Part shown: in pieces, positions 1,657 through 63,211 of the stretch
Layout: every line of letters starts with the position of its first letter
Numbering within the stretch: position 1 is the first letter of the stretch
NCBI GenBank assembly: GCA_046344715.1
Contig: JBKDKX010000004.1
Span: 30,892-94,891 of the forward strand
Direction: 5' to 3'
Length of the DNA stretch: 64,000 nucleotides
DNA from: Alphaproteobacteria bacterium
GTDB taxonomy: Bacteria; Pseudomonadota; Alphaproteobacteria; Rickettsiales; SXRF01
The notes under the pieces: model-generated
The model's input: only the letters and a program-made list of their open reading frames with translations
Told to the model about the DNA's origin: nothing
Database searches by the model: none
Made by a program: the position numbers and the translations under genes

Positions 1657-1744
1657 GGTTGGTTACTAGTTACTGGTTATTAGTTGTTTGTAATATGGCC
1701 GCATTAATATACCAGCAACCGACAACTAACAACCAGCAACTACT
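1657..1744. repeat. Inverted heptanucleotide-repeat element (family A) filling the coaX-rnj spacer
   Basis: Left arm GTTACTA GTTACTG GTTATTA GTTGTTT (1662-1689). Right arm ACCAGC AACCGAC AACTAAC AACCAGC AACTACT (1711-1744). The arms are roughly complementary. The last heptamer contains the coaX TAG stop (1740-1742). Confidence 0.65.
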
Positions 1745-2507
1745 TATTCATCTCATATATCTCTTTAAGCCCTAAAACCGTCAAATCCGGCTCAATTTGC
1801 TCAATTACCGGGCATGCCTTGATATAAAGCGAGGCAAGGCCGCCGGTTGCTATGATTTTTATGCCATTACCCTGCTCTTCCTTGATGCGGGAAATAATGC
1901 CATCAATAAGCCCGGCATAGCCATAATAAATGCCGGATTGCATGGCCGCGACCGTATTCGTGCCCACTACCTTTGCCGGACGCATGATACCCACATTGGG
2001 TAATTTTGCAGCCGCCCTTTGAAGCGCATCGAGCGATAAATTCACCCCCGGGGCAATTACACCGCCCACATATTCGCCCTTGGCATTCACCACGTCAAAC
2101 GTGGTCGCCGTGCCAAAATCCAGTACGATAAGTGCCTGCTTATTTCTATTCCACGCAGCAGAGGCATTCACCAGTCGGTCTGCACCCACCTCACGCGGGT
2201 TATCAATTTTCACTGGCATGATGGGTTTAAGCGCAGGATCTCCCACAATCATTAAATCCGTATGGAAATAACGCTTGGCCAGCATCCGCAGATCAAAGAT
2301 TGCCTGCGGCACTACGCTTGCCAGAATCGCCCCTGTAATTTTTTTAGGGTCGAGATGCTCATGCTCCATCACCTGGGTGAGCCACACGCCATATTCATCT
2401 GCCGTGCGCCGTGCATCGGTGGAGATGCGCCACTGGCCAACAATCTTCTTGCCGTCAAACACAGCAAATACCACGTTGGTATTACCGGCATCTATCGTAA
2501 GCAGCAT
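1740..2507 (-). CDS. coaX: Type III pantothenate kinase
   Basis: 255 aa ORF. N-terminal MLLTIDAGNTNVVFAVF (DxGNT phosphate-1 motif). ASKHA-fold pattern ..LDFGTATTFD.. and ..ATGGLA... Confidence 0.9.
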   Translation of the reverse strand: MLLTIDAGNTNVVFAVFDGKKIVGQWRISTDARRTADEYGVWLTQVMEHEHLDPKKITGAILASVVPQAIFDLRMLAKRYFHTDLMIVGDPALKPIMPVKIDNPREVGADRLVNASAAWNRNKQALIVLDFGTATTFDVVNAKGEYVGGVIAPGVNLSLDALQRAAAKLPNVGIMRPAKVVGTNTVAAMQSGIYYGYAGLIDGIISRIKEEQGNGIKIIATGGLASLYIKACPVIEQIEPDLTVLGLKEIYEMNK

Positions 2508-19025: not shown

Positions 19026-19588
19026 CGTATGATTGTCCCTACACGACGGATTTTTTTCTGAAGCTGAAGAATGCCATACATCAGTGCCTCAGCAGTTGGC
19101 GGACAACCGGGCACATACACATCCACCGGCACAATACGATCACAACCGCGCACCACCGAATAGGAATAATGGTAATAGCCGCCACCATTGGCGCAGCTAC
19201 CCATGGAAATCACATAGCGCGGTTCGGCCATCTGGTCATAGACTTTGCGCAGTGCCGGTGCCATTTTGTTGCACAGCGTGCCAGCCACAATCATCACGTC
19301 CGCCTGACGCGGACTGGGGCGAAACACTACACCCAAATGATCCATATCATAGCGCGATGCTGCCGCCTGCATCATCTCCACCGCGCAACATGCCAGACCA
19401 AATGTCATTGGCCAAAGCGAGCCGGAACGCGCCCAATTTACCAGATGGTCAAGCTTGGCGACTACAAAGCCCTTGTCGTTCATCTGATCGAAAGCCTGCT
19501 TCAGCAGCCTGTCCTGATCGGTAATGAGCGGCTGGTGACTGGCAACTGGTGACTGAATTACTCCCATTCGAGTGCCCCTTTCTTCCAT
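19022..19588 (-). CDS. nuoB: NADH-quinone oxidoreductase subunit B
   Basis: 188 aa. ..[17 protein letters not shown].., ..[15 protein letters not shown].. and ..VPGCPP... The start may be the internal MGVIQ. Confidence 0.93.
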
Positions 19589-21134: not shown

Positions 21135-21148
21135 AACCACCAACCATT

Positions 21149-21178
21149 AAAAAAGCCGCCCTTTTGGGCGGCTTTTTT
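21149..21178 (+). terminator. Rho-independent terminator (A-run/hairpin/T-run, potentially bidirectional)
   Basis: AAAAAA GCCGCCC TTTT GGGCGGC TTTTTT. Perfect 7-bp GC stem at 21155-21161 and 21166-21172, flanked by A6 and T6. Confidence 0.75.
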
Positions 21179-21180
21179 AA

Positions 21181-21257
21181 TGGCGGGAGTGACGGGACTC
21201 GAACCCGCGGCCTTCGCCGTGACAGGGCGACGCTCTAACCAACTGAGCTACACCCCC
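21181..21257 (-). tRNA. tRNA-Asp (GTC)
   Basis: Reverse complement is GGGGGTGTAGCTCAGTTGGTTAGAGCGTCGCCCTGTCACGGCGAAGGCCGCGGGTTCGAGTCCCGTCACTCCCGCCA. The acceptor stem pairs, the anticodon loop is CTGTCAC, a T-loop GGTTCGAGTCC is present and CCA is encoded. Confidence 0.9.
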
Positions 21258-25568: not shown

Positions 25569-25623
25569 GACGCGTCCTTCTATAATGTTTTCGTCATCGC
25601 GAGGCGCAAGGCAATCTTGATCT

Positions 25624-25715
25624 GTCATCCTGAACGAAGTGAAGGATCTTAAGATTCTTCGCTTTGCTCAGAATGACACTGAGCACTGGATTGCTTCGCT
25701 CACGCTCGCAATGAC
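25624..25715. repeat. GTCAT...ATGAC palindromic element plus half-copy of a second family
   Basis: 25624-25677 has two 27-nt arms, GTCATCCTGAACGAAGTGAAGGATCTT and AAGATTCTTCGCTTTGCTCAGAATGAC, matching at 22 of 27 positions. 25686-25715 (CTGGATTGCTTCG...CTCGCAATGAC) matches the right half of the element at 35610-35695. Confidence 0.6.
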
Positions 25716-25822
25716 GGTTAATACGGAAATAAGGGCAAACCACAAAGCGTGGCAAAAGGCAAATGGAAAGCGTAAAAACTTGTATTGGCTAAAAATGTAC
25801 TTACGGAACAAAATACCAGAAA

Positions 25823-27199: not shown

Positions 27200-27284
27200 T
27201 GGTGCGGGTGGAGGGACTTGAACCCCCACGCCTTGCGGCGCCAGAACCTAAATCTGGTGCGTCTGCCAATTCCGCCACACCCGC
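27200..27284 (-). tRNA. tRNA-Leu (TAG)
   Basis: Reverse complement is GCGGGTGTGGCGGAATTGGCAGACGCACCAGATTTAGGTTCTGGCGCCGCAAGGCGTGGGGGTTCAAGTCCCTCCACCCGCACCA. Anticodon loop TTTAGGT, long variable arm, 85 nt, CCA encoded. Confidence 0.9.
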
Positions 27285-27380: not shown

Positions 27381-27420
27381 ACTGGCGACTAAAAACTTAC
27401 GACTTACTACTAACCACTGG
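27381..27420. repeat. Solo heptanucleotide array (ACTNNNN x about 6)
   Basis: ACT recurs at 27381, 27388, 27395, 27402, 27409 and 27416 (ACTGGCG ACTAAAA ACTTACG ACTTACT ACTAACC ACTGG). Same 7-nt phasing as the family A arms. No inverted partner seen. Confidence 0.45.
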
Positions 27421-30646: not shown

Positions 30647-31501
30647 CTACTTGAACACCACCGTCTTCTGGCCATTGAGCAAAACGCGGTGTTCCACATG
30701 GTATTTAAGTGCACGCGAAAGCACCAGACATTCAATATCACGGCCAATCGCCACCAAATCTTCCACGCTATGGGCATGGTCTACCCGCGCCACTTCCTGC
30801 TCAATAATTGGCCCTTCATCAAGGTCGGTTGTTACATAATGCGCGGTTGCACCAATAATTTTAACCCCACGCGCATAGGCCTGTGCATAAGGCTTAGCGC
30901 CTTTGAAGCTAGGCAAAAACGAGTGATGAATATTAATCGCCTTACCAGAAAGAGCCGTGCACATCTCTGCTGACAATATCTGCATGTACCGCGCCAGCAC
31001 AACCACATCCACCGCATGATCATTTACAATCTCCAGAATCTTTTTCTCCTGCGCAGATTTATCACCATGAATCGGCAAATGATAAAACGGCACATTATGC
31101 CACTTCGCCACATGCTCTAAATCCGGATGGTTAGAGACAATCGCTGGAATATTGATGGTAAGCTGGCCTGTCTCATACCGGTAGAGTAAATCGTTCAGGC
31201 AGTGCCCTTCCTTAGAAACCATGATGAGCACACGACTCTTTTGCTGTTTGCCACGCATCTCCCACTGCATGGAAAATGGCTTGGCTACCACATCAGCAAA
31301 TTCAGCGCGGAGTTTTTCCTCCGCTGGCGCACCTGTTTCCAGCCCAAAATCAACACGCATGAAGAAACGCCCCGTGGATTCATCACCAAACTGGCCAGAT
31401 TCTACAATAAACCCGCAGCGGTCAGCCAGAAACCGGCTTACAGAAGCCACTATGCCGCGCACGTCTTTGCAGGAAAGTGTAAGAATATAGCGATTATCCA
31501 T
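30647..31501 (-). CDS. purU: Formyltetrahydrofolate deformylase
   Basis: 284 aa. N-terminal ACT domain (YILTLSCKDVRGIVASVSRFLA). Formyltransferase core ..INIHHSFLPSFKGAKPY.. and ..GATAHYVTTDLDEGPII... Confidence 0.9.
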   Translation of the reverse strand: MDNRYILTLSCKDVRGIVASVSRFLADRCGFIVESGQFGDESTGRFFMRVDFGLETGAPAEEKLRAEFADVVAKPFSMQWEMRGKQQKSRVLIMVSKEGHCLNDLLYRYETGQLTINIPAIVSNHPDLEHVAKWHNVPFYHLPIHGDKSAQEKKILEIVNDHAVDVVVLARYMQILSAEMCTALSGKAINIHHSFLPSFKGAKPYAQAYARGVKIIGATAHYVTTDLDEGPIIEQEVARVDHAHSVEDLVAIGRDIECLVLSRALKYHVEHRVLLNGQKTVVFK

Positions 31502-33522
31502 TATGCTACCTTTTTAGATTTCAGGTGTTGTTGCAGTTCAGGATTATGCCGATCAAAATGACACTCGAACGTAGAACCTTTACCCACATCGGAATGCACC
31601 TCAACATGCCCACCATGCAACTCAACAAAACTTTTTACGATAGAAAGACCAAGACCGGTGCCGGAACGCTTGCCCGATTTATTTTTTGCACCTTCCTGCG
31701 CTTTGCCTTTATAGAATTTACCAAAGACCTCCGCCTGCTCCTCCGTTGGTATCCCCTGCCCTTCATCGGCTACCCAAAGCACCACGCCATCATTTTCTGC
31801 TTCACGCGCACCAAGAGTAATCGTCTGCCCTGCATCTGAATATTTGATGGCGTTAGAAAGCAGGTTGAAGAGGATCTGTTTGATGCGGGTTTCATCACCC
31901 GTCATTTTTCCAATCTTGCCTGCACACTCAAATGCTACCTGGATATTATGCTCTTTTACACGCTCCTGAATCAGCGAGAGTACCGATTTCATCATGGCAT
32001 ATACATCGAACTTCGTGACATCAAGGCGCATATATCCAGCTTCCACACTGGCCAAATCAAGAATGTCATTAATCAGCTGCATCAATCGCATGGAAGATTG
32101 GTGGATACCATCCACATACTCTTTCTGTTTCTCGGAAAGCGCACCAAAATACTCCTGTTTGAGCATTTCTGAAAATCCGGCAATGGAGGTAAGCGGCGAG
32201 CGCAATTCATACGATACATTAGCAAGGAATTCTGTTTTGAGTTTGTCTGCTTCCTGTAATGCTTCATTACGTTCTCGTAAAGATCGCTCTACCAGCGTGG
32301 AATCAGTAATATCCATGTAGGTAATGAGTGTCGCGCCATCCGGCAGTGGAATTTTTCGCCAGTCAATCACCTTGCCGTCCGTGCGCTCCAGCTGGCGTGA
32401 ACGCAGCTCACGCACCTGAATCTGCGCGATGTGATCCTGCTTGAACGTTTCCCAATCTTCAAACACAAAGAGGGGTTTGCAACGCTCTACTATTTCAGAA
32501 ATATGCGGCTCGCTTACCGCAAGCTCTGCATCAATATTCCACATACTAAGATAGCCAGGATTATAGAGTTTTAACCTGCCGTCCTCGCCAAACACGGCAA
32601 GCCCTTCATGCAGATTATCCAGCGTTTCACGCTGGACGGCAATCAGCGTATTATAAGAACGCTCCAGTGCCAGCCTGTCAGTGACATCTTCATACGCAAA
32701 TAAAATTCCGCCAAGCGCATGCGGAATAGCAATAACGCGTAATGAAACTCCATCTGGCAGATGGAAAAATTCTTCACGTGGCTCGATAAGGTCGGTGAAT
32801 AATTTGACCTGTTGCTGCTTGAACATCTGGAAATTCGCCTGTTCCGGCAGTTTGCGTTTTTCACGCAATACTTCGAGTATCTCGCTGTAAGTCGGCTGCG
32901 TGCCAAGCCATATTTCATCAAACTTCCAGAGTGCCACAAACGCATAATTGAACGATTTAAGCCGCATGTCTGCGCCATAAATCGCCATAGCAGACGCTGA
33001 GCTTTCCAATAGATCTGTTTGGGCAGATACATGCCTTTGCAAATCTTCTTTTAAAATTTCCAGCTCTGTCATATCTTGCGCAAAACCTACGGACATTTTT
33101 TCCTGCGTAAGTGGCAACTCAGTAATGTCATAAAGCCTGCGCTCACCCGCAACCACAATATGCCTTCGTTCATGCGCTGGCTTGCCACTTTCGATAGCCT
33201 GCCGTGCCATAGGCTTCATTTTCTGGTCAAGCTCTGGTGTTTCTACACTCTCGCCCTCTTCCTCCACTGCCATGCTGTAAGCAAGATTATAGAACTTCAG
33301 GCGAAGTGATTCATCACGTTGCCAGATAGGATATGGGGACATATTGATGATGGTGGAGTAATTACGCAGTTCGCTTTTTAGTTTTTCATTTTCTTGCGAA
33401 AGGCGAAGAATCTGCTTTTTTTGTTCTTCAATTTCAACCTGCGCAGCGATGTGCGAAGATGGCTTGGCTGCCGCTCCCAGAGCGGATTTCAACACATCCT
33501 TAAATCGCCGTGATTCTGCCAT
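31501..33522 (-). CDS. divL: DivL-like PAS-domain sensor kinase homolog with Tyr replacing the phosphoacceptor His
   Basis: 673 aa. The H-box reads FLANVSYELRSPLTSIAGFSEML, with Tyr codon TAT at 32209-32211 on the minus strand. N box LFNLLSNAIKYS, G1 VADEGQGIP and G2 GTGLGLSIV are intact. Coiled-coil N-terminus and PAS-like repeats. Confidence 0.7.
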   Translation of the reverse strand: MAESRRFKDVLKSALGAAAKPSSHIAAQVEIEEQKKQILRLSQENEKLKSELRNYSTIINMSPYPIWQRDESLRLKFYNLAYSMAVEEEGESVETPELDQKMKPMARQAIESGKPAHERRHIVVAGERRLYDITELPLTQEKMSVGFAQDMTELEILKEDLQRHVSAQTDLLESSASAMAIYGADMRLKSFNYAFVALWKFDEIWLGTQPTYSEILEVLREKRKLPEQANFQMFKQQQVKLFTDLIEPREEFFHLPDGVSLRVIAIPHALGGILFAYEDVTDRLALERSYNTLIAVQRETLDNLHEGLAVFGEDGRLKLYNPGYLSMWNIDAELAVSEPHISEIVERCKPLFVFEDWETFKQDHIAQIQVRELRSRQLERTDGKVIDWRKIPLPDGATLITYMDITDSTLVERSLRERNEALQEADKLKTEFLANVSYELRSPLTSIAGFSEMLKQEYFGALSEKQKEYVDGIHQSSMRLMQLINDILDLASVEAGYMRLDVTKFDVYAMMKSVLSLIQERVKEHNIQVAFECAGKIGKMTGDETRIKQILFNLLSNAIKYSDAGQTITLGAREAENDGVVLWVADEGQGIPTEEQAEVFGKFYKGKAQEGAKNKSGKRSGTGLGLSIVKSFVELHGGHVEVHSDVGKGSTFECHFDRHNPELQQHLKSKKVA

Positions 33523-33563
33523 GACATTGTTTTAGAATAAATATCGGAAGCTGTCATGTAAAA

Positions 33564-33639
33564 TTAGTTACTTGTTACTGGTTGCTAGTTGCCAGGAATT
33601 TTCATAACCAGCAACTAACAACCAGCAACTAGAAACTAA
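33564..33639. repeat. Inverted heptanucleotide-repeat element (family A) after ahcY
   Basis: Left arm TTAGTTA CTTGTTA CTGGTTG CTAGTTG CCAGG. Right arm AACCAGC AACTAAC AACCAGC AACTAGA AACTAA. The arms are about 80 percent complementary by hand alignment. The final heptamer carries the ahcY TAG stop (33636-33638). Confidence 0.7.
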
Positions 33640-34955
33640 TACCGATAAGCATCCGGCTTGAACGGGCCTTCTTGCGGTACGCTGATATATTCAGCTTGTT
33701 TCTTGGTAAGTTTAGTGAGCTTCACGCCAAGCTTTTCAAGGTGCAGTGCCGCCACTTTTTCATCCAGATGCTTTGGCAGAACATATACTTTGTTTTCGTA
33801 TTTCGAGTGATTTTTCCATAGCTCAATTTGTGCAATTACCTGATTGGAGAAGCTGGTGCTCATCACAAAACTTGGATGACCAGTCGCGCAGCCAAGGTTC
33901 ACAAGGCGGCCTTTGGCGAGCAGAATAATGCGCTTGCCATCAGGAAATTCCACTTCATCCACCTGCGGTTTGATTTCATTCCACTTCATGTTGCGCAGTG
34001 CCGCCACCTCAATTTCGCTATCGAAATGGCCAATGTTGCACACAATTGCGCGGTCTTTCATCGCACGCATATGATCCAGCGTTATGATGTCTTCATTACC
34101 GGTTGCGGTCACAAAAATATCAGCAATCGGCGCCATTTCTTCCATGGTGGTTACCTGATAACCTTCCATCGCAGCCTGAAGCGCGCATATAGGATCAATT
34201 TCAGTGACGATAACGCGGGCACCCTGTGTTTTAAGAGATGCAGCGCAACCCTTGCCCACGTCACCAAAACCAGCAACCACGCAGATTTTACCTGCAAGCA
34301 TCACATCGGTTGCGCGTTTTAGACCATCCGGCAATGATTCGCGACAACCATACAAATTGTCGAATTTGGATTTTGTGACAGAGTTATTCACGTCAATAGC
34401 TGGCACCTTCAGTTTTCCAGCTTTTACCATTTCATGCAGACGATGCACGCCGGTGGTAGTTTCTTCGGAAATACCCTTGATATGCGCAAGCAAATCAGGA
34501 TGCTTTTCATGCATGATTTTGGTGACGTCACCGCCGTCATCCAGAATCATATTCGCTGTCCAGCCGTTCGGTCCTTTCAGTGTCTGTTCGATGCACCATT
34601 CATATTCTTCTTCGGTTTCGCCTTTCCATGCGAATACAGGAATGCCTGCTGCTGCAATCGCCGCCGCTGCCTGATCCTGTGTAGAGAAAATATTGCAGCT
34701 GCTCCAGCGCACTTCCGCACCCAATGCTGTGAGCGTTTCAATGAGGACCGCAGTTTGAATGGTCATATGCAGGCAGCCAATGATACGCGCACCTTTCAGC
34801 GGTTGGCTTTTGCCATATTCTTTGCGAAGTGCCATGAGGCCTGGCATTTCGCTTTCCGCAATGGAGATTTCCTTGCGACCCCACTCAGCCAAATTAATAT
34901 CAGCAACTTTGTAATCAGTGAATAATACGTTATGCGGATTTGGCTTAGCAGACAT
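33636..34955 (-). CDS. ahcY: Adenosylhomocysteinase
   Basis: 439 aa. ..[25 protein letters not shown]... NAD site ..[13 protein letters not shown]... C-terminal ..KPDAYRY. Confidence 0.95.
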
Positions 34956-35030
34956 GGGGGTTCCTTTCGAGTTTTAATGCCGGAAACCTAGCGTTTATGG
35001 CCAAAAAGGCAAGCAAAAACCCTTTTACTT

Positions 35031-35115
35031 GTCATCCCCGCTTTATGCGGGGATCTAGGGACTAGTGAATAGAACTATCGTGTGGCTCTAGATCCCCGCA
35101 TAAAGCGGGGATGAC
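35031..35115. repeat. GTCAT...ATGAC element with perfect 28-bp terminal inverted repeats
   Basis: GTCATCCCCGCTTTATGCGGGGATCTAG (35031-35058) is the exact reverse complement of 35088-35115. The spacer is 29 bp. Each arm contains a CCCCGC-N5-GCGGGG hairpin. Confidence 0.75.
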
Positions 35116-35116
35116 A

Positions 35117-35614
35117 CTATTTTTTTATCTCAATCAGGCTATTCGTATCAAGATTAGGCAAAATCTCTAATAAATCAGCTTTTGCCAGTGCTACACAACC
35201 TTCCGTGTATGAGTAATCCGGCTTGGCCACATGCAGGAAAATGGCACTGCCAAGGCCAGAAACTATTGGATCATCATTGTACCCCATGGGCACGATCAGG
35301 TCATACATGTCATCATCCCGCCAGAGGTTTTCATGTGATGCCGCAAAGGGCAATTTTACGTGGCGGTTATATTCCAGACTTTTGGGATCATCGCACCAGC
35401 CATCATCCGGCTGAATTATCTTAAGCCGAAGGCCAGTTTCTGGCGTATCCATTTTATCTGCACGATACCAGCATTCCCTGAGCGGGAAAATGCCCACAGG
35501 CGTAATGCCATCACCCTCTTGATGCTTGGGCGCGAACCCGCTACGTCCGATAGCGCAACGATAGGTTTTGCCATTAAAAAAAACTGTGTTCCCAGTAACT
35601 AGAATTTTTGTCAT
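35117..35614 (-). CDS. L,D-transpeptidase (YkuD) family protein
   Basis: 165 aa. Catalytic signature ..IFLHVAKPDYSYTEGCVAL.. (His...Gly-Cys). Confidence 0.8.
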   Translation of the reverse strand: MTKILVTGNTVFFNGKTYRCAIGRSGFAPKHQEGDGITPVGIFPLRECWYRADKMDTPETGLRLKIIQPDDGWCDDPKSLEYNRHVKLPFAASHENLWRDDDMYDLIVPMGYNDDPIVSGLGSAIFLHVAKPDYSYTEGCVALAKADLLEILPNLDTNSLIEIKK

Positions 35615-35695
35615 TGCGAGCGTTATTGAAGCAATCCAGTTTTCACACTACAGTAGGAGCTGGATTGCTTCGTCGTGAATGCTCCTCGCAATGGC
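35610..35695. repeat. Nested palindromic element (CATTGCGAG / GAAGCAATCCAG family) filling the dxs-ldt spacer
   Basis: Outer pair CATTGCGAG (35612-35620) and CTCGCAATG (35685-35693). Inner perfect 12-bp pair GAAGCAATCCAG (35628-35639) and CTGGATTGCTTC (35660-35671). Confidence 0.65.
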
Positions 35696-35699
35696 GGGA

Positions 35700-40426: not shown

Positions 40427-40429
40427 ACT

Positions 40430-40453
40430 AGCCCCGCACTTGTTGCGGGGGCT
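40430..40453. repeat. CCCCGCA-N5-TGCGGGG hairpin copy
   Basis: CCCCGCA CTTGT TGCGGGG (40432-40450). It shares the core CGCACTTGTTGCG with the hairpin at 21512-21524. Confidence 0.5.
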
Positions 40454-40500
40454 GGTTCATGCTTATCGTTGAATCAACCATATATTTACGTATTGAATTG

Positions 40501-40532
40501 AAAAAAGAGGGATTTTCTGCTCGTACCCTCTT
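40501..40532 (-). terminator. Rho-independent terminator after the ABC-2 permease gene
   Basis: The minus strand reads AAGAGGG-13 nt loop-CCCTCTT followed by TTTT.. (plus-strand A-run 40501-40506). Confidence 0.5.
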
Positions 40533-40551
40533 ATTGTCAATATAAAACCGG

Positions 40552-40570
40552 ACCCCGCAATGAATGCGGG
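40552..40570. repeat. CCCCGCA-N5-TGCGGGG hairpin copy
   Basis: CCCCGCA ATGAA TGCGGGG, immediately downstream of the ABC-2 permease stop (40574). Confidence 0.5.
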
Positions 40571-40573
40571 GGT

Positions 40574-41344
40574 TTAGGTCTTAAGCCTATAGCCTTTTTT
40601 GAACATCCAGACGGTTGCCACCCAGAGCACCACATTGATGCCGGTAAGTACCAGCATGCCAGTGATGATGGTGCCGTCCGTATAACCGGTCATGGCGTAG
40701 CGGAATCCGTCTATCATATAAAAGAACGGGTTGATGTGGCACACCCAATACCAGAATTCTGGTAACTGCTTGATGGAGTAAAACGTGCCGGATAAGAATG
40801 CCAGCGGCGTTACGATATAGTTGGTGATGGCCGAAAGCTGGTCAAACCCATTTGACCACACACCCGCCAGAACCCCAAGCAATGCCATCATGATGCTGGA
40901 TGCCACTACATAAAACACCGCAAGCCAGAAGCTGTGCAGGGTAAATGGCACAAACACATATACTGATGCCAGCACCACCACACCCACAGACAGGCCACGC
41001 GCTATGCCACCTATTGCCATGGCCAGCGTGATTTCGCTGCCGGTAAGCGGCGGCATAAGAATATCAATAATTACACCCTGAATTTTTGCCAGAATGAGCG
41101 AAGAAGACGTATTGGCAAAGGCATTCTGCACCACCGCCATCATGATAAGCCCAGGTGCAACAAACTGACTGTATGGCACGCCGTCTATCACGCGCTCAGC
41201 ACCACCCATGGCAAGTGTAAGTACCGCCAGAAATAACAATGTTGTCACAACGGGCGCAATCACCGTCTGGTTCCAGACCTTGGCAAAACGCCAGATCTCG
41301 CGTTTGCAGAGTGTGTATGTGCCAATAAGGTTGAAGTGGTTCAT
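40574..41344 (-). CDS. ABC-2 type transporter permease (NodJ/YadH-like)
   Basis: 256 aa with six predicted TM segments. N-terminal ..LCKREIWRFAKVWNQTVIAPVVTTLLFL.. is typical of the ABC-2 family. Confidence 0.8.
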   Translation of the reverse strand: MNHFNLIGTYTLCKREIWRFAKVWNQTVIAPVVTTLLFLAVLTLAMGGAERVIDGVPYSQFVAPGLIMMAVVQNAFANTSSSLILAKIQGVIIDILMPPLTGSEITLAMAIGGIARGLSVGVVVLASVYVFVPFTLHSFWLAVFYVVASSIMMALLGVLAGVWSNGFDQLSAITNYIVTPLAFLSGTFYSIKQLPEFWYWVCHINPFFYMIDGFRYAMTGYTDGTIITGMLVLTGINVVLWVATVWMFKKGYRLKT

Positions 41345-41355
41345 ATTAAGGTCAC

Positions 41356-41426
41356 AGCTATAAGTTTTAAGGTTTCAGCGGGGCAACATATACCTAAACG
41401 CTAAAATCTAAAAGCTAAAACCTATT
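41356..41426. repeat. Inverted heptanucleotide-repeat element, variant with NNCTAAA units
   Basis: Right arm ACCTAAA CGCTAAA ATCTAAA AGCTAAA ACCTATT (41392-41426). The degenerate left arm ..ATAAGTT TTAAGGT TTCAGCG is partly complementary. The last unit carries the TAG stop of the upstream gene (41422-41424). Confidence 0.55.
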
Positions 41427-41667
41427 TCTGCCGCTGCATATATGCCTGTGCATAAGAACATACCGGCACAATGGTAAGGCCACGCGCTTTTGCATCGGCT
41501 ACCACACCTTCCATAATTTTGGCGGCCATTCCCTGCCCGCGCAGTTCATTTGGTACAAATACATGCTCGATAACCAGCTTGTTTCCCTCGAGATGATATG
41601 CCGCAAAGGATACATGACCATCGGTGATGATTTCATAACGGCTTTCATTGGTGTTATTGGAAATCAT
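41422..41667 (-). CDS. Small GNAT-like (YjdJ/Acetyltransf_CG type) protein
   Basis: 81 aa. ..YEIITDGHVSFAAYHLEGNKLVIEHVFVPNELRGQGMAAKIM..VPVCSYA.. matches the single-domain GCN5-related family. Confidence 0.65.
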   Translation of the reverse strand: MISNNTNESRYEIITDGHVSFAAYHLEGNKLVIEHVFVPNELRGQGMAAKIMEGVVADAKARGLTIVPVCSYAQAYMQRQK

Positions 41668-42702: not shown

Positions 42703-42768
42703 TATTTACCCAAGAAAAAGCGGTGCAATATTGCTACTGCACCGCTTTGTTAAAAATTACCTGCTATA

Positions 42769-44408: not shown

Positions 44409-44471
44409 TTTCTTTTGTTATACTGGCGCAGGCCAGTATCCACGTCTTGCCGGAGTCTATGTGTTTAACAT

Positions 44472-44496
44472 GGATTCCGGCCTTCGCCGGAATGAC
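44472..44496. repeat. Solo hairpin-plus-ATGAC repeat end
   Basis: GG ATTCCGGC CTTC GCCGGAAT GAC, an 8-bp stem ending 2 nt before the pheS ATG. Confidence 0.5.
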
Positions 44497-44498
44497 GT

Positions 44499-45554
44499 AT
44501 GAACACTAACGATTTACGCAATAATTCCCTTTCTGCCATTGATGCCTGCACATCTTCCGCAGCACTTGAAGAACAGCGTGTAGCACTGCTGGGGAAAAAA
44601 GGTACACTAACCGAATCACTGAAAACGCTTGGCTCTGCCACTCCAGAAGAACGCAAAACGCTCGGCGCTGAACTAAATAAAATAAAACAGGAAGTAAGCG
44701 AAGCTATTGACGCTAAAAAAGCATCTCTGGCAAACGCTGAGCTTTCTGCACGGCTTGTGAGTGAAAAAATAGACGTAACACTTCCCGCTCAGCCGATACC
44801 TCAGGGGCGTATCCACCCCGTCACTCAGGTAATGGAAGAAATAACTGCCATTTTTGCCGATCTAGGCTTTTCCGTGGCCGATGGCCCTGACATTGAAGAT
44901 GACGAGCATAATTTCGATGCTCTGAATATCCCTGCCTCGCACCCTGCCCGCCAAATGCATGATACGTTCTATCTACAAGGCGAAAAGATGCTACTGCGTA
45001 CCCACACATCACCCGTGCAGATCCGCACCATGAAAAATGGCAAGCCGCCGTTCCGCTTCATTGCACCGGGCAGCACCTATCGCTGCGATTCCGATATTAC
45101 CCACACGCCAATGTTCCATCAGGTTGAGGGTTTCGTTATCGACCAAAACATTCATATGGGGCACTTAAAAGGCTGCATCATCGAATTTTTGAAAGCCTTC
45201 TTCGAGCTGGATGAGGTGCCGGTGCGCTTCCGCCCGAGCTTCTTCCCATTCACTGAACCATCGGCAGAAGTAGACATCGGCTGCACACGTTCACGCGAGG
45301 AAATTAAAATCGGTGCTGGTGCTGATTGGCTCGAGGTAATGGGTTGTGGCATGGTGCACCCGAATGTGTTGAAGAATTGCGGCATTGACCCGAACGAATG
45401 GCAAGGTTTTGCTTTTGGCATGGGTGTTGAGCGCCTTGCCATGCTGAAATATGGCATTCCCGACCTGCGCACGTTCTTTGATAGCGATGCGCGCTGGCTC
45501 AAACATTATGGCTTTGACCCGCTGCACATTCCGTCACTCGTGGGGGGATTATGA
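44499..45554 (+). CDS. pheS: Phenylalanine--tRNA ligase alpha subunit
   Basis: 351 aa. ..[11 protein letters not shown].., ..[11 protein letters not shown].. and ..[16 protein letters not shown]... Confidence 0.95.
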
Positions 45555-47965
45555 AATTTACCCTCTCATGGTTGAAAGACCATCTGGATACCAATGCATC
45601 TCTGGATGAGATCAGCAAAACCCTCACAGCCATTGGCCTTGAAGTGGAATCCATAACTGACCGCAGTGCAGCCCTGAAACCCTTCACAGTTGCTAAAGTA
45701 TTGCACGCAGAAAAACATCCCGAAGCAGATAAACTCCGCGTATGCAAAGTGCAGTCCGATATCGGCGAATTACAAATTGTCTGCGGTGCGCCAAATGCAC
45801 GTGCAGGTATTTTCGTAGCGCTTGCCAAGGAAGGTGCGCTGATTCCGCGTGACCAGTTCGTTATCAAAAAAACTAAGATACGTGGTGTGGAATCGAACGG
45901 TATGCTTTGCTCTGCCGATGAACTGGGAATTGGCGGTGATTCCGAAGGCATTATTGAGCTCCCTGAATCGCCCATCGGTGCATCTGTTGCTGAAATGATG
46001 GGGCTGAATGATCCTGTGATTGAAATCGCCATCACCCCAAACCGCGCCGATGCGCTTGGTATACGCGGCATTGCGCGTGACCTTGCGGCCGCTGGCCTTG
46101 GCACGCTGAAACCACTGCCAAATACATCCGGCATAAAAGGCTCTTTTGCATCGCCCGTGTCCATCAGCATTGCGGATGAGAACTGCCAACAATTCATCGG
46201 CTGTTATATTAAAGGTGTAAAAAATACCCCCTCTCCCGTATGGCTGAAAAACCGCCTTGCTGCGATTGGACAAAAATCCATTTCTGCACTGGTTGATATT
46301 TCCAACTATATCACCTTTGACCTTGGCCGCCCGCTGCATGTGTATGACGCGAAGAAATTAAATGGCAGTATCCACGTGCGCGCTGCCAAAGATGGCGAAA
46401 AACTTGCGGCACTTGATAACAAGGAATATTCCCTCACAAAAGATATGCTGGTGATAGCGGATGACCGTGCGGCACTTGGCCTTGGCGGTATCATTGGCGG
46501 CATGGAAACCGGTTGCACCCCAGAAACTACGGATGTGTTTTTAGAAGTGGCACTCTTCAATCCTATCAGCGTTGCCAAAACCGGCCGTGCGCTACAACTG
46601 AACACGGATGCACGTTACCGTTTTGAGCGTGGTGTTGATGTTGCCTTTGTGGAAGAAGGCGCAAAACATGCACTGCGTCTTATTAAAGAACTGTGCGGCG
46701 GTGAAGCCAGCGAATTGGTGAAAGCAGGCAACACACCAAACTGGAGACGTGAGATTGTATTTAATCCGCCACGTGTACATACCCTCGGAGGCGTAGATGT
46801 ACCCGCTGATAAATGTATCCAGATACTTACTTCCCTTGACTTCACCAGCCACCAGCCACAAGCCACAAGCCACTATCTTGTAAGCCCGCCTTCATGGCGT
46901 GCGGATGTGGAAGGCGAAGCCGATGTGGTGGAAGAGATCCTGCGCATCAATGGCTATGACCATATTCCGGCAACGCCATTGCCGAAATTTGCAACGATTA
47001 CAAAACCTGCACTGAATTTAATGCAGAAACGCACTCATCTGGCTAAGCGGCTGCTTGCTGCTCGCGGATTCATGGAATGCTGCACATGGTCTTTCCTTGC
47101 TGAAAAGCAGGCGAAATCATTCGGTGGCACAAATGCTGCACTGAAACTGGCAAACCCGATTTCGGCTGACCTTGACACCATGCGCCCATCCCTGCTTCCC
47201 AACCTTCTGGATGCCATGGGACGCAATGCCAATCGTGGTTTTATGGATTTATCTCTTTTTGAAGTCGGACTACAGTTCTCAGATACTAAACCCGAAGGCC
47301 AACGCATGGTAGCAGCAGGCGTACGTACCGGTATCTCTCAATATTATGATTACAAAGAACAACCGTTCAAACGCGATGGCCAATTTATTAATGCTTACGA
47401 TGCTAAAGCTGATGCACTTGCTGTACTGGACGCTCTAGGTATTACTACTAAAGGGATAACCATTACCACGAATACCCCCGCATGGTATCATCCTGGGCGC
47501 TCTGGAGCGTTAACATTAGGCGGTAAAATTATCCTTGGTTATTTTGGTGAAATTCATCCCACGATTAAGACTGATACTATTCTTGATATTATTTCGGGTT
47601 TTTGTGCATTTGAAATTTTCCTTGATGCCATACCTACCCCGCGCGCAAAAACAAAAGCAAAAGCATCGTTAAAACTTTCTGATTATCAGGCAGTGACACG
47701 TGATTTTGCATTCATTGTGGATTCTCAGGTGAGCGCATCAGATATCATCAGTGCCATCAACAAAGCTGAAAAACAACTCATCACCAATGTTGAGATATTC
47801 GATGTGTATGCTGGCAAAGGCGTGGAAGCCGGCAAGAAATCCGTGGCCGTGCAGGTGACATTGCAGGCAATGGATAAAACGCTCTCTGAAGCGGATATTC
47901 ACGCCATTTCCAACGCCATCATCGCCGCTGCCGCCAAAGGTTTCGGCGGCGTGCTAAGGCAATGA
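45551..47965 (+). CDS. pheT: Phenylalanine--tRNA ligase beta subunit
   Basis: 804 aa. N-terminal [14 protein letters not shown].. and tRNA-binding domain ..[12 protein letters not shown]... ATGA overlap with pheS. Confidence 0.95.
46845..46872 (+). repeat. Heptanucleotide tandem repeat inside pheT coding sequence
   Basis: CCAGCCA CCAGCCA CAAGCCA CAAGCCA (4 x 7 nt), translated as ..SHQPQATSH... Confidence 0.6.
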
Positions 47966-63014: not shown

Positions 63015-63089
63015 TGGTGGCTCGAGAGGGATTTGAACCCCCGACCAAGGGATTATGATTCCCCTGCTCTACCACTGAGCTACCGAGCC
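63015..63089 (-). tRNA. tRNA with CAT anticodon (elongator Met type; Ile2-lysidine not excluded)
   Basis: Reverse complement is GGCTCGGTAGCTCAGTGGTAGAGCAGGGGAATCATAATCCCTTGGTCGGGGGTTCAAATCCCTCTCGAGCCACCA. The acceptor stem pairs, position 1-72 is a G-C pair (not initiator-like) and CCA is encoded. Confidence 0.85.
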
Positions 63090-63211
63090 ACGAGGGATAA
63101 GGGATTAGGCAGGTATGCCCTAAAAATCAAGTAAAAACTGATGAGAAGCTGTTGAGTTATCGTTTTATATCCTGTAAGGACTGGAAAACCACAACTTTTG
63201 AGGAAAAGCGC

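Follow-up and report, generated by a model that had tools for sequence, protein, structure and literature searches.

The stretch of DNA analysed here, called the window in what follows, comprises 64,000 nucleotides of contig JBKDKX010000004.1. Its sequence is near-identical to sequences in freshwater and biofilter metagenomes, and its protein relatives come from metagenome-assembled genomes (MAGs) that carry the labels Rickettsiales, Alphaproteobacteria or Pseudomonadota bacterium. The DNA belongs to an uncultured freshwater alphaproteobacterium; a Bacteroidota host, at first suggested by the TGTCATCC...GGATC repeats, proved wrong in view of these relatives. Our subject is a set of hairpin elements built from inverted arrays of 7-nt units, which occupy three spacers of the window at 1657-1744, 33563-33640 and 41356-41424 (loci 1, 2 and 3).

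Locus 1 lies between coaX upstream (1740-2507, minus strand) and the RNase J gene rnj downstream (minus strand, ATG at 1654-1656). Locus 2 separates ahcY (33636-34955, minus strand) from the gene of a PAS histidine kinase (HK; 31501-33522, minus strand), and locus 3 separates the gene of an 81-amino-acid GNAT protein (41422-41667, minus strand) from that of an ABC-2 permease (40574-41344, minus strand). The initial annotation had reported three loci of one architecture between minus-strand genes, with the outermost unit supplying the TAG stop of the upstream gene, and we confirm both statements. All flanking genes are on the minus strand, the upstream genes end in TAG at 1740-1742 (coaX), 33636-33638 (ahcY) and 41422-41424 (GNAT), and at every locus this TAG is, on the sense strand, the first triplet of the outermost heptamer.

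At locus 1 the sense units read TAGTTGC, TGGTTGT, TAGTTGT and CGGTTGC. The first three form the 5' arm (1722-1742, minus strand), which opens with the coaX stop, and the 3' arm (1667-1687, minus strand; ACAACTAATAACCAGTAACTA) ends 10 nt before the RNase J ATG; the two arms are 90% complementary. The centre (1688-1721, minus strand) holds the extra unit CGGTTGC TGG and the loop, and shows no homology to the locus 2 loop. The element makes up the entire 83-nt spacer, 1657-1739.

At locus 2 the sense units are TAGTTTC, TAGTTGC, TGGTTGT and TAGTTGC. The 5' arm (33608-33640, minus strand; TTAGTTTC followed by TAGTTGC TGGTTGT TAGTTGC TGG) contains the ahcY TAG, and pairs over 33 bp, 4 of them G-U, with the 3' arm (33563-33595, minus strand; CCTGGCAAC followed by TAGCAAC CAGTAAC AAGTAAC TAAT), leaving in the fold a loop at 33596-33607 (minus strand). 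AhcY retains its usual ...YRY C-terminus, and the element therefore begins at the native stop. A promoter-like TTTACA-17-TATTCT sequence (33534-33562, minus strand) stands between the hairpin and the HK start codon, in a block shared without a difference by the window and two relatives, L024 (HK 91% identical to the window's) and the congeneric MAG L202 (HK 90%); its position would make hairpin 2 the end of the ahcY transcription unit.

Locus 3 is of a different quality. Its five units (TAGGTTT, TAGCTTT, TAGATTT, TAGCGTT and TAGGTAT; 41392-41424, minus strand) start from the GNAT stop and repeat with tandem periods of 7 and 14, and since a TAG recurs every 7 nt, TAG is present in all three frames. 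The opposite arm is only partial (41356-41380, minus strand; CCGCTGAAACCTTAAAACTTATAGC), with weak, register-shifted pairing.

We then measured the periodicity of the window as a whole. The two-unit AACYARC pattern AACYARCAACYARC, with up to two mismatches, has 20 matches in the window compared with 5.0 +/- 2.3 in shuffled sequences, and none of 100 shuffles reached 20. Tandem Repeats Finder detects a 7-nt period at each of the loci, with copy numbers of 3.4-4.7, so that each carries at least three head-to-tail 7-nt units. A scan for self-similarity at a threshold of at least 15/21 gave 72 scan windows for lag 7 versus 0-12 for lags 4-12, lag 7 alone being conspicuous, and at the stricter threshold of 16/21 the only lag-7 arrays in the window are those of the three loci and one at 46839-46882.

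This fourth array (plus strand; CACCAGC, CACCAGC, CACAAGC, CACAAGC) lies inside pheT (45551-47965, plus strand), in a variable loop of the protein, and has no inverted partner. An in-frame inserted palindrome of the RPE-like kind was considered for it and ruled out, as the protein is only 1 amino acid off the length of Pseudomonas aeruginosa PheT (4p71) and the fold is not significant. A second solitary array (19528-19555, minus strand; sense TCAGTCA CCAGTTG CCAGTCA CCAG) follows directly 3' of the nuoA TAA stop and codes for SPVASHQPL in the N-terminal tail of NuoB, again without an inverted partner. Such stop-free arrays inside coding DNA are what is expected if selection filters a mutational process. 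Two weak lag-7 arrays, at 27387-27419 and 63084-63111, were also seen in long spacers by tRNA genes (27203-27284 and 63018-63089).

The sense strand of locus 2 folds at -42.5 kcal/mol (z -8.2) and that of locus 1 at -36.2 kcal/mol (z -5.2), compared with -29.6 and -25.9 kcal/mol for the respective plus strands. Locus 3 reaches -23.7 kcal/mol (z -1.9, marginal) in the sense direction and -16.9 kcal/mol on the plus strand; with a clear 5-unit array on one side and a weak opposite arm, it is barely a hairpin. The imperfect hairpin that the initial annotation had assigned to each locus thus holds for loci 1 and 2. The 7-nt periodic mismatches described earlier are a matter of strand: on the plus strand of loci 1 and 2 they are A-C, whereas in the transcribed minus strand they become G-U pairs, giving a nearly continuous sense RNA stem (21-22 bp) in which the spacing of mismatches is 7-8 nt and not strictly 7. 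The hairpin stems measure 21-33 bp and are A/U-rich.

Rfam at gathering score found only four tRNAs in the whole window, and in E-value mode it returned only sub-threshold eukaryotic microRNA-precursor models, which are generic matches to long hairpins, and no bacterial family.

Loci 1 and 2 have an exact 20-mer in common (TAGTTGCTGGTTGTTAGTTG) but are unrelated in their centres. The outer arm (ATTAGTTTCTAGTTGCTGG...) recurs in a further copy, found on an 11.5-kb contig whose depth equals that of the window genome in three runs. The AACYARC-type family therefore amounts to a handful of copies per genome, about 3-4 being detectable.

To see how far the elements extend beyond this genome, we used a lineage sample of 80 loci around the orthologous HK gene of related MAGs (1.35 Mb in total, of which 9.9% is intergenic, the genomes being about 90% coding). 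The sample contains 35 intergenic lag-7 arrays, compared with 1-5 each for lags 4, 5, 8, 10, 11 and 13; period 7 is enriched approximately 10-fold in the intergenic DNA. Most of these arrays are inverted pairs that begin at the upstream stop codon or within 3 nt of it. On the other hand, the unit sequences vary from MAG to MAG (GGTGTCA, CGTAGTT, TAGGCAA, GATGAGG, CTGAAAC and others). Period and position are hence lineage-wide and unit sequence is not, and an excess of period 7 among unrelated unit sequences points to a mechanism tied to length rather than to sequence.

Some arrays of the sample depart from the inverted arrangement. In L016 (12773-12822) a tandem-only array, (TAGGCAA)3 TAGGCTT TAGGCTA, runs from a TAG stop up to the next ATG with no opposite arm, and L054 (9840-9875) has the tandem-only array TAGGTTT TAGCGGT TAGGTTT TAGGTGT TAGCCGG, whose units are much like those of window locus 3. 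In L003 (7815-7905) and L015 (11895-11995) the upstream open reading frame (ORF) runs through the full 5' arm and stops in the loop, so that the repeat becomes a short C-terminal extension. The idea that a C-poor proximal arm serves to supply stops in all frames fits locus 3, L016 and L054, and was abandoned as it fails at L003, where the ORF reads through the arm.

Orthologous sites show that elements of this kind have been gained, lost and altered in length between species. Among 59 relatives the ahcY-HK spacer ranges from 2 nt to several hundred nt and contains nothing, simple hairpins, REP-like palindromes of the TGTCATCC type, or heptamer hairpins of varied units. L024 carries an AACYARC-type hairpin as in the window, with about 5 units per arm; L202 has only a 14-bp perfect palindrome, with one unit (GTTGCTGG/CCAGCAAC) per arm, compared with the 4-5 units per arm of the window and L024. 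At the site of locus 3, L202 lacks an array and the stop is TAA. The coaX-rnj spacer measures 11 nt in L205, a second locus of the same congeneric genome as L202, and 19 nt in L207, another relative, both with TAA stops; given these short spacers, the 83-nt hairpin of locus 1 is a lineage-specific addition within the birA-coaX-rnj operon. No lag-7 array was found in 95 kb of L202-L207, which includes 43 kb of the congeneric genome.

Besides these spacers, the relative L206 (5872-6342) has, between coaX and rnj, a 156-amino-acid ORF that ends in TAG, and 11 nt separate this ORF from rnj; the ORF has no recorded Pfam hit and looks hydrophobic and membrane-like. Upstream of the HK gene, the block TTTACATGACAG...TTTATTCTAAAACAATGTCATGG (33523-33562) is identical in the window, L024 and L202, three species with about 50% identity at synonymous sites. 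Besides the TTTACA-17-TATTCT sequence, which is sigma-70-like, the block has a palindrome, CATGACA...TGTCATG, overlapping the HK start codon, and in L202 a tandem duplicate of TTACATGACA is present.

Once present, the hairpin of locus 2 does not drift freely: the window and L024 are 75% identical over it, compared with 52% at the four-fold degenerate sites of ahcY, and 28 of its 33 pairs are kept. Covariation between the two sequences was dropped as an argument, there being just one two-sided compensatory change. At strain level, among assembled contigs from 8 metagenome runs (contigs drop rare variants), no substitution or indel was seen in the arrays of contigs that carry single-nucleotide polymorphisms in the flanks.

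The relation to the stop codon was then assessed quantitatively. Stop-adjacent heptamer elements of the lineage follow TAG in 12 of 16 cases (TAA 3, TGA 1), whereas TAG accounts for 28% of all called stops (p = 1.3e-4), a count that includes orthologous and phylogenetically non-independent sites; without the orthologous ahcY sites, 5 of 8 follow TAG (p = 0.04). Within the set of ahcY orthologues, TAG is the stop in 7 of 8 with arrays and 15 of 51 without (Fisher p = 0.003). The stop triplet is mostly in register with the YRG triplets (TAG, TGG, CAG, CGG) of the units that follow, and the stop codon is therefore part of the array.

Arrays of the AACYARC type are also widespread in metagenome contigs, an exact-pattern scan giving at least 120 loci. 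Among the matches listed, an inverted partner lies within 130 nt of 27 of 130 arrays, versus 2 of 105 in a distance control, and an ORF stop stands at a foot of about three quarters of some 20 distinct hairpins; a rough tally of these stops gives TGA 6, TAA 5 and TAG 4. This suggests that flush contact with a stop is general while the preference for TAG is local to the lineage, so that the TAG association put forward in the initial annotation is upheld within the lineage and does not extend to metagenomes at large.

A second regularity concerns the order of the arms. Of 19 lineage hairpins, 18 have a G-rich 5' arm and a C-rich 3' arm, and the metagenome hairpins among the matches listed have the GTT-type arm first in 23 cases versus 4 with AAC first. 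As a palindrome reads alike on both strands, this polarity belongs to the element and does not result from a choice of strand.

Based on these observations we tentatively favour the following account, to which we give a little less than an even chance. The elements would be palindromic heptanucleotide simple sequence repeats (SSRs) that are copied between sites, grow by slippage, are tolerated nowhere but directly against a stop codon and, in the mRNA, form REP-like 3' or intercistronic hairpins. A short palindrome would arise at or just after a stop codon, or arrive as a copy from another site. Its arms would then gain or lose length in steps of 7 or 14 nt through replication slippage, their complementarity being kept by selection for pairing or by template switching within the quasi-palindrome. 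Because the genomes are about 90% coding and most units carry TAG or TAA, an array is expected to persist only outside reading frames, flush with a stop. That stop would become the first unit, and only this copy would be held as TAG, later unit copies being free to drift to TGG, CAG or CGG.

Transcribed with the upstream gene, the element would fold as a long A/U- and G-U-rich hairpin without a U-tract. REP hairpins in RNA shield upstream mRNA from 3' exonucleases, as in Escherichia coli malE-malF, and Correia (CREE) stems are RNase III substrates that alter mRNA levels in Neisseria; stems of 21-33 bp are long enough for RNase III. By analogy with these two systems, the hairpins may act as 3'-exonuclease barriers or as RNase III-type processing sites between cistrons, and not as intrinsic terminators.

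The support for slippage comes from the orthologous ahcY-HK spacer, with its one unit per arm in L202 and 4-5 in the window and L024, together with the lineage-wide period 7. The initial annotation had suggested growth by slippage, and to this extent we agree; slippage alone leaves the 20-nt identity and the origin of locus 1 unexplained. Considering that an identical 20-nt arm segment is found at loci 1 and 2 and that locus 1 stands in a spacer of 11-19 nt in relatives, some copying between sites is needed.

Several observations weigh against the favoured account, or at least against its simpler forms. Slippage cannot by itself place a hairpin in an 11-nt spacer, so that a copying or insertion step is required, and the G-rich-arm-first polarity (18/19) is not accounted for by a slippage or SSR model. 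No unit-number variants were present at strain level in the assembled contigs of the 8 metagenome runs, and the non-independence of the TAG counts must be kept in mind. Symmetric growth of both arms was not seen directly; we infer template switching, as we do slippage itself. Transcription of the elements, their 3' ends and any processing or other RNA role are likewise inferred.

The evidence from G-U pairing is also two-sided. For loci 1 and 2 taken together, the sense fold has 8 G-U pairs and the antisense fold 1, an asymmetry that favours a structure mattering on the sense strand. Over 18 heptamer hairpins (15 from relatives and the three of the window), the counts are 62 sense and 49 antisense, and the asymmetry is therefore not general. 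Moreover, the minus strand of the window is generally G+T-rich, which makes strand composition a partial confounder: the baseline difference in folding energy is -3.3 +/- 5.9 kcal/mol, and among 213 windows scanned the hairpins take ranks from 12th to 62nd. For these two reasons we do not take the G-U asymmetry as proof of a role at the RNA level.

Of the other explanations, the one that survives best, though we consider it unlikely, is a mobile family of the REP/REPIN type or of the type of miniature inverted-repeat transposable elements (MITEs). Here a trans-acting transposase would insert the hairpin at TA, TAG or YTAR, and the heptamer arms would be secondary. Non-genic targets would mostly be stop codons, and a G-initial element inserted in the TA of a stop gives TAG. 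The 20-nt arm segment common to loci 1 and 2 and the third copy in the same genome are in line with this, as are the other REP-like palindromes that directly follow stops in the window. Compared with the 11-19-nt spacers of relatives, locus 1 appears as a clean extra 74 nt with TAG...TAG flanks (AAG TAG/TTGCTGG...CAGTAAC/TAG/TAACCAACC ATG). Locus 3 has ATAG...ATAG flanks, and excising locus 2 between TA...TA leaves TAT TAA TTTT, with a TAA stop as in many relatives. At loci 1 and 3, moreover, the array-free congener (L202/L205) has TAA in place of the window's TAG.

However, these flanks are uninformative. The units contain CTAG or TTAG, and any such palindrome begins with TAG and ends with CTA, for which reason target-site duplications were set aside as an argument; terminal inverted repeats are, by the same token, trivially present. 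The unrelated loops and centres of loci 1 and 2 are unlike those expected of copies of one MITE, and the copy number appears to be a handful, not tens to hundreds. Arms of period 7 recur, both across the lineage and in metagenomes, among sequence families that are unrelated, and are therefore not incidental to one family, and the number of units differs among relatives at one and the same site (locus 2). A Pfam scan of 17 window ORFs revealed no transposase, and no RAYT gene was identified, without a systematic search for either having been made.

We consider it rather improbable that the elements are selected regulatory RNA devices, in which an intercistronic stem has the stop codon as its 5' foot and its 3' foot beside the following start codon, and in which a terminating ribosome opens the stem and couples translation, or RNase III uncouples the stability of the two cistrons. 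The geometry is suitable: at locus 1 the stop forms the 5' foot and the 3' arm comes within 10 nt of the rnj ATG, and the 3' foot of locus 3 is 6-14 nt from an ATG. Stems of this length suffice for RNase III, the confinement of G-U pairs to the sense strand at loci 1 and 2 is consistent with such a device, and so is the higher conservation of the hairpin than of synonymous sites between the window and L024. Against it, the same gene pairs in congeners and relatives manage with 11-19-nt spacers and no hairpin, and a conserved need is not evident. A promoter-like block parts hairpin 2 from the next gene by 41 nt, and the ahcY-HK spacer of the 59 relatives extends from 2 nt to unrelated palindromes.

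A broader proposal joins origin and function, and we regard it as a long shot. The arrays would be made by a stop-anchored process, either repeat duplication of a TAG-led 7 nt or TA(G)-targeted insertion that turns TAA to TAG, and G-rich-arm-first hairpins would be a general device of compact genomes that sets the expression ratio of adjacent cistrons through the terminating ribosome or RNase III. If true, it would explain both the mechanism and the function of the heptanucleotide excess beside bacterial stop codons.

It is very improbable that the elements are ordinary Rho-independent terminators that are repetitive by chance. They do lie directly downstream of stops between co-directional genes, and hairpin 2 is followed by AUUUUA and then by the promoter-like site. 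However, there is no U-tract 3' of loci 1 and 3, where the terminator scan was blank, and at locus 2 the scan picked up 5-bp stems only and not the heptamer stem. The canonical terminators of the window (42703-42768 and 21144-21183) have short GC-rich stems and a U-tract, in contrast to the 21-33 bp, A/U-rich stems of the elements, and within the birA-coaX-rnj operon, where locus 1 lies, the space before rnj is too short for a promoter. The canonical terminator was therefore dropped.

The slimmest chance of all goes to the suggestion of the initial annotation that the heptamers are recognised by a repeat-reading protein; such a protein would act on DNA or RNA, and its sites would define a regulon, as has been proposed for the Beggiatoaceae TAACTGA repeats (PMC4679880): the 4-5 regular units, their partly conserved positions (AAC..C/G..GTT) and the many AACYARC-type metagenome arrays are compatible with it, but unit sequence is wholly different between close MAGs while period and position stay constant, copies are few, the flanking genes (coaX/rnj, ahcY/HK, GNAT/ABC-2) have no common function, both arms sit in the stem and are masked from single-strand readers, arrays are absent from 43 kb of a congeneric genome, and no candidate protein was found.

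The window also contains palindromes of other kinds, and at least four unrelated families of extragenic palindromes are present in the genome. Directly after the TAG stop of a YkuD-domain gene (35117-35614, minus strand), a perfect 29-nt inverted repeat (TGTCATCCCCGCTTTATGCGGGGATCTAG and its complement) begins in the spacer 34956-35116; each arm contains a small hairpin, and the 161-nt spacer folds at -75.7 kcal/mol. It is of the TGTCATCC...GGATGACA type, which is also present at 25623-25678 and in the ahcY-HK spacers of L025, L049 and L068. REP-like palindromes GAAGCAATCCAG..., GTCATTGCGAGCG..., GGATTCCGGC...GCCGGAATGAC and CCCCGCA...TGCGGGG are found in the co-directional spacers 35615-35699, 25629-25822, 44409-44498 and 40427-40573.

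The relevance of these elements lies in the repeat class that they represent. Of all long tandem repeats, heptanucleotide repeats are the most strongly over-represented in many bacterial genomes. The lineage studied here offers a comparative series in which the same spacer is empty or holds a one-unit or a 4-5-unit palindrome, and it adds two regularities, namely a stop codon, with an excess of TAG, in register as the first unit and a G-rich arm that comes first in 18 of 19 hairpins. If mRNA processing or translational coupling is influenced by the hairpins, operon expression could change through them rapidly and in a lineage-specific way; should they have no such effect, they would still be a useful marker of replication-slippage bias.

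Compared with known systems, the elements resemble REP, BIME and REPIN sequences in being dispersed extragenic imperfect palindromes that are lineage-specific and often stand directly after stops and inside operons, and their size of about 80 nt is REPIN-like. REP arms, on the other hand, have no internal 7-nt tandem structure, and REP families have hundreds of copies, a conserved GTAG head and an associated RAYT gene, whereas we find about 3-4 copies with the heads AAGTAG, ATTAG and AATAG and no consistent GTAG. With Correia elements and TA-targeting MITEs they have in common that they form hairpins, are intergenic and are flanked by TA, and Correia elements are co-transcribed with their neighbours. 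Correia elements, however, have a conserved body of 100-150 nt, 26-bp terminal inverted repeats and hundreds of copies, while here only the tandem-heptamer arms are common to the copies.

A much closer likeness is to the intergenic heptanucleotide SSRs. In the summary that PMC4679880 gives of Mrazek et al. 2007, this survey found heptanucleotide repeats to be the most abundant class of long SSRs in many prokaryotic genomes, and the same summary gives their proposal that 7 nt reflects the contact between DNA polymerase and template during slippage. TAACTGA repeats are known from Beggiatoaceae, Cyanobacteria and Bacteroidetes, the stop codons in their units exclude them from ORFs, and 7-nt indels separate related strains, for example of Cyanothece (PMC4679880); tandem-heptamer elements are also listed for Geobacter (PMC2700814). 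The STRR and LSSR repeats of this class (Calothrix/Nostoc STRR, TAACTGA) agree with the present elements in their heptanucleotide period, intergenic position, patchy occurrence by lineage and stop-carrying units. Even the sequences are close, since TAACTGA (= AACTGAT) is near AACYARC, and mixed AACTGAC/AACTAAC/AACCAGC arrays occur in metagenome contigs. They differ in arrangement: TAACTGA units form direct repeats, most of which closely precede a start codon, and one set in 170 is inverted, whereas here inverted pairs are anchored at the stop.

The inverted arrangement has its counterpart in Xanthomonas. The GGGAATC repeats of Xanthomonas and the GGGGAYT repeats of Nostoc are about 90% intergenic and chiefly between aligned ORFs (Rehm et al. 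2015, PMC4692102). Their mean distance from the upstream ORF is 28 nt, with some of them overlapping its stop codon; a Xanthomonas genome contains 70-75 inverted pairs capable of forming stem-loops, with about 4 units preferred; positions are not common to related species, and no function was assigned (PMC4692102). In the window and in its relatives alike, heptamer arrays are inverted and placed between aligned ORFs, at most about 50 nt from the upstream stop or overlapping it. The statement of the initial annotation that the elements could not be placed in a named repeat family was therefore too strong: they are a new example of the known heptanucleotide-SSR (STRR/LSSR) class, which includes the stop-proximal inverted arrays of Xanthomonas, and not a new kind of element.

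Within this class the differences are specific. The units of Xanthomonas and Nostoc are G-rich and were studied as formers of G-quadruplexes, while the units here (AACYARC/RYTRGTT and ACCTAAA) are A/T-rich, have no G3 tracts and cannot form that structure, and the approximately 185 copies per genome of those repeats compare with few in the present one. What distinguishes the elements described here is that the upstream stop codon, TAG, stands in register as the first unit of the array, and that their host is an uncultured alphaproteobacterium.

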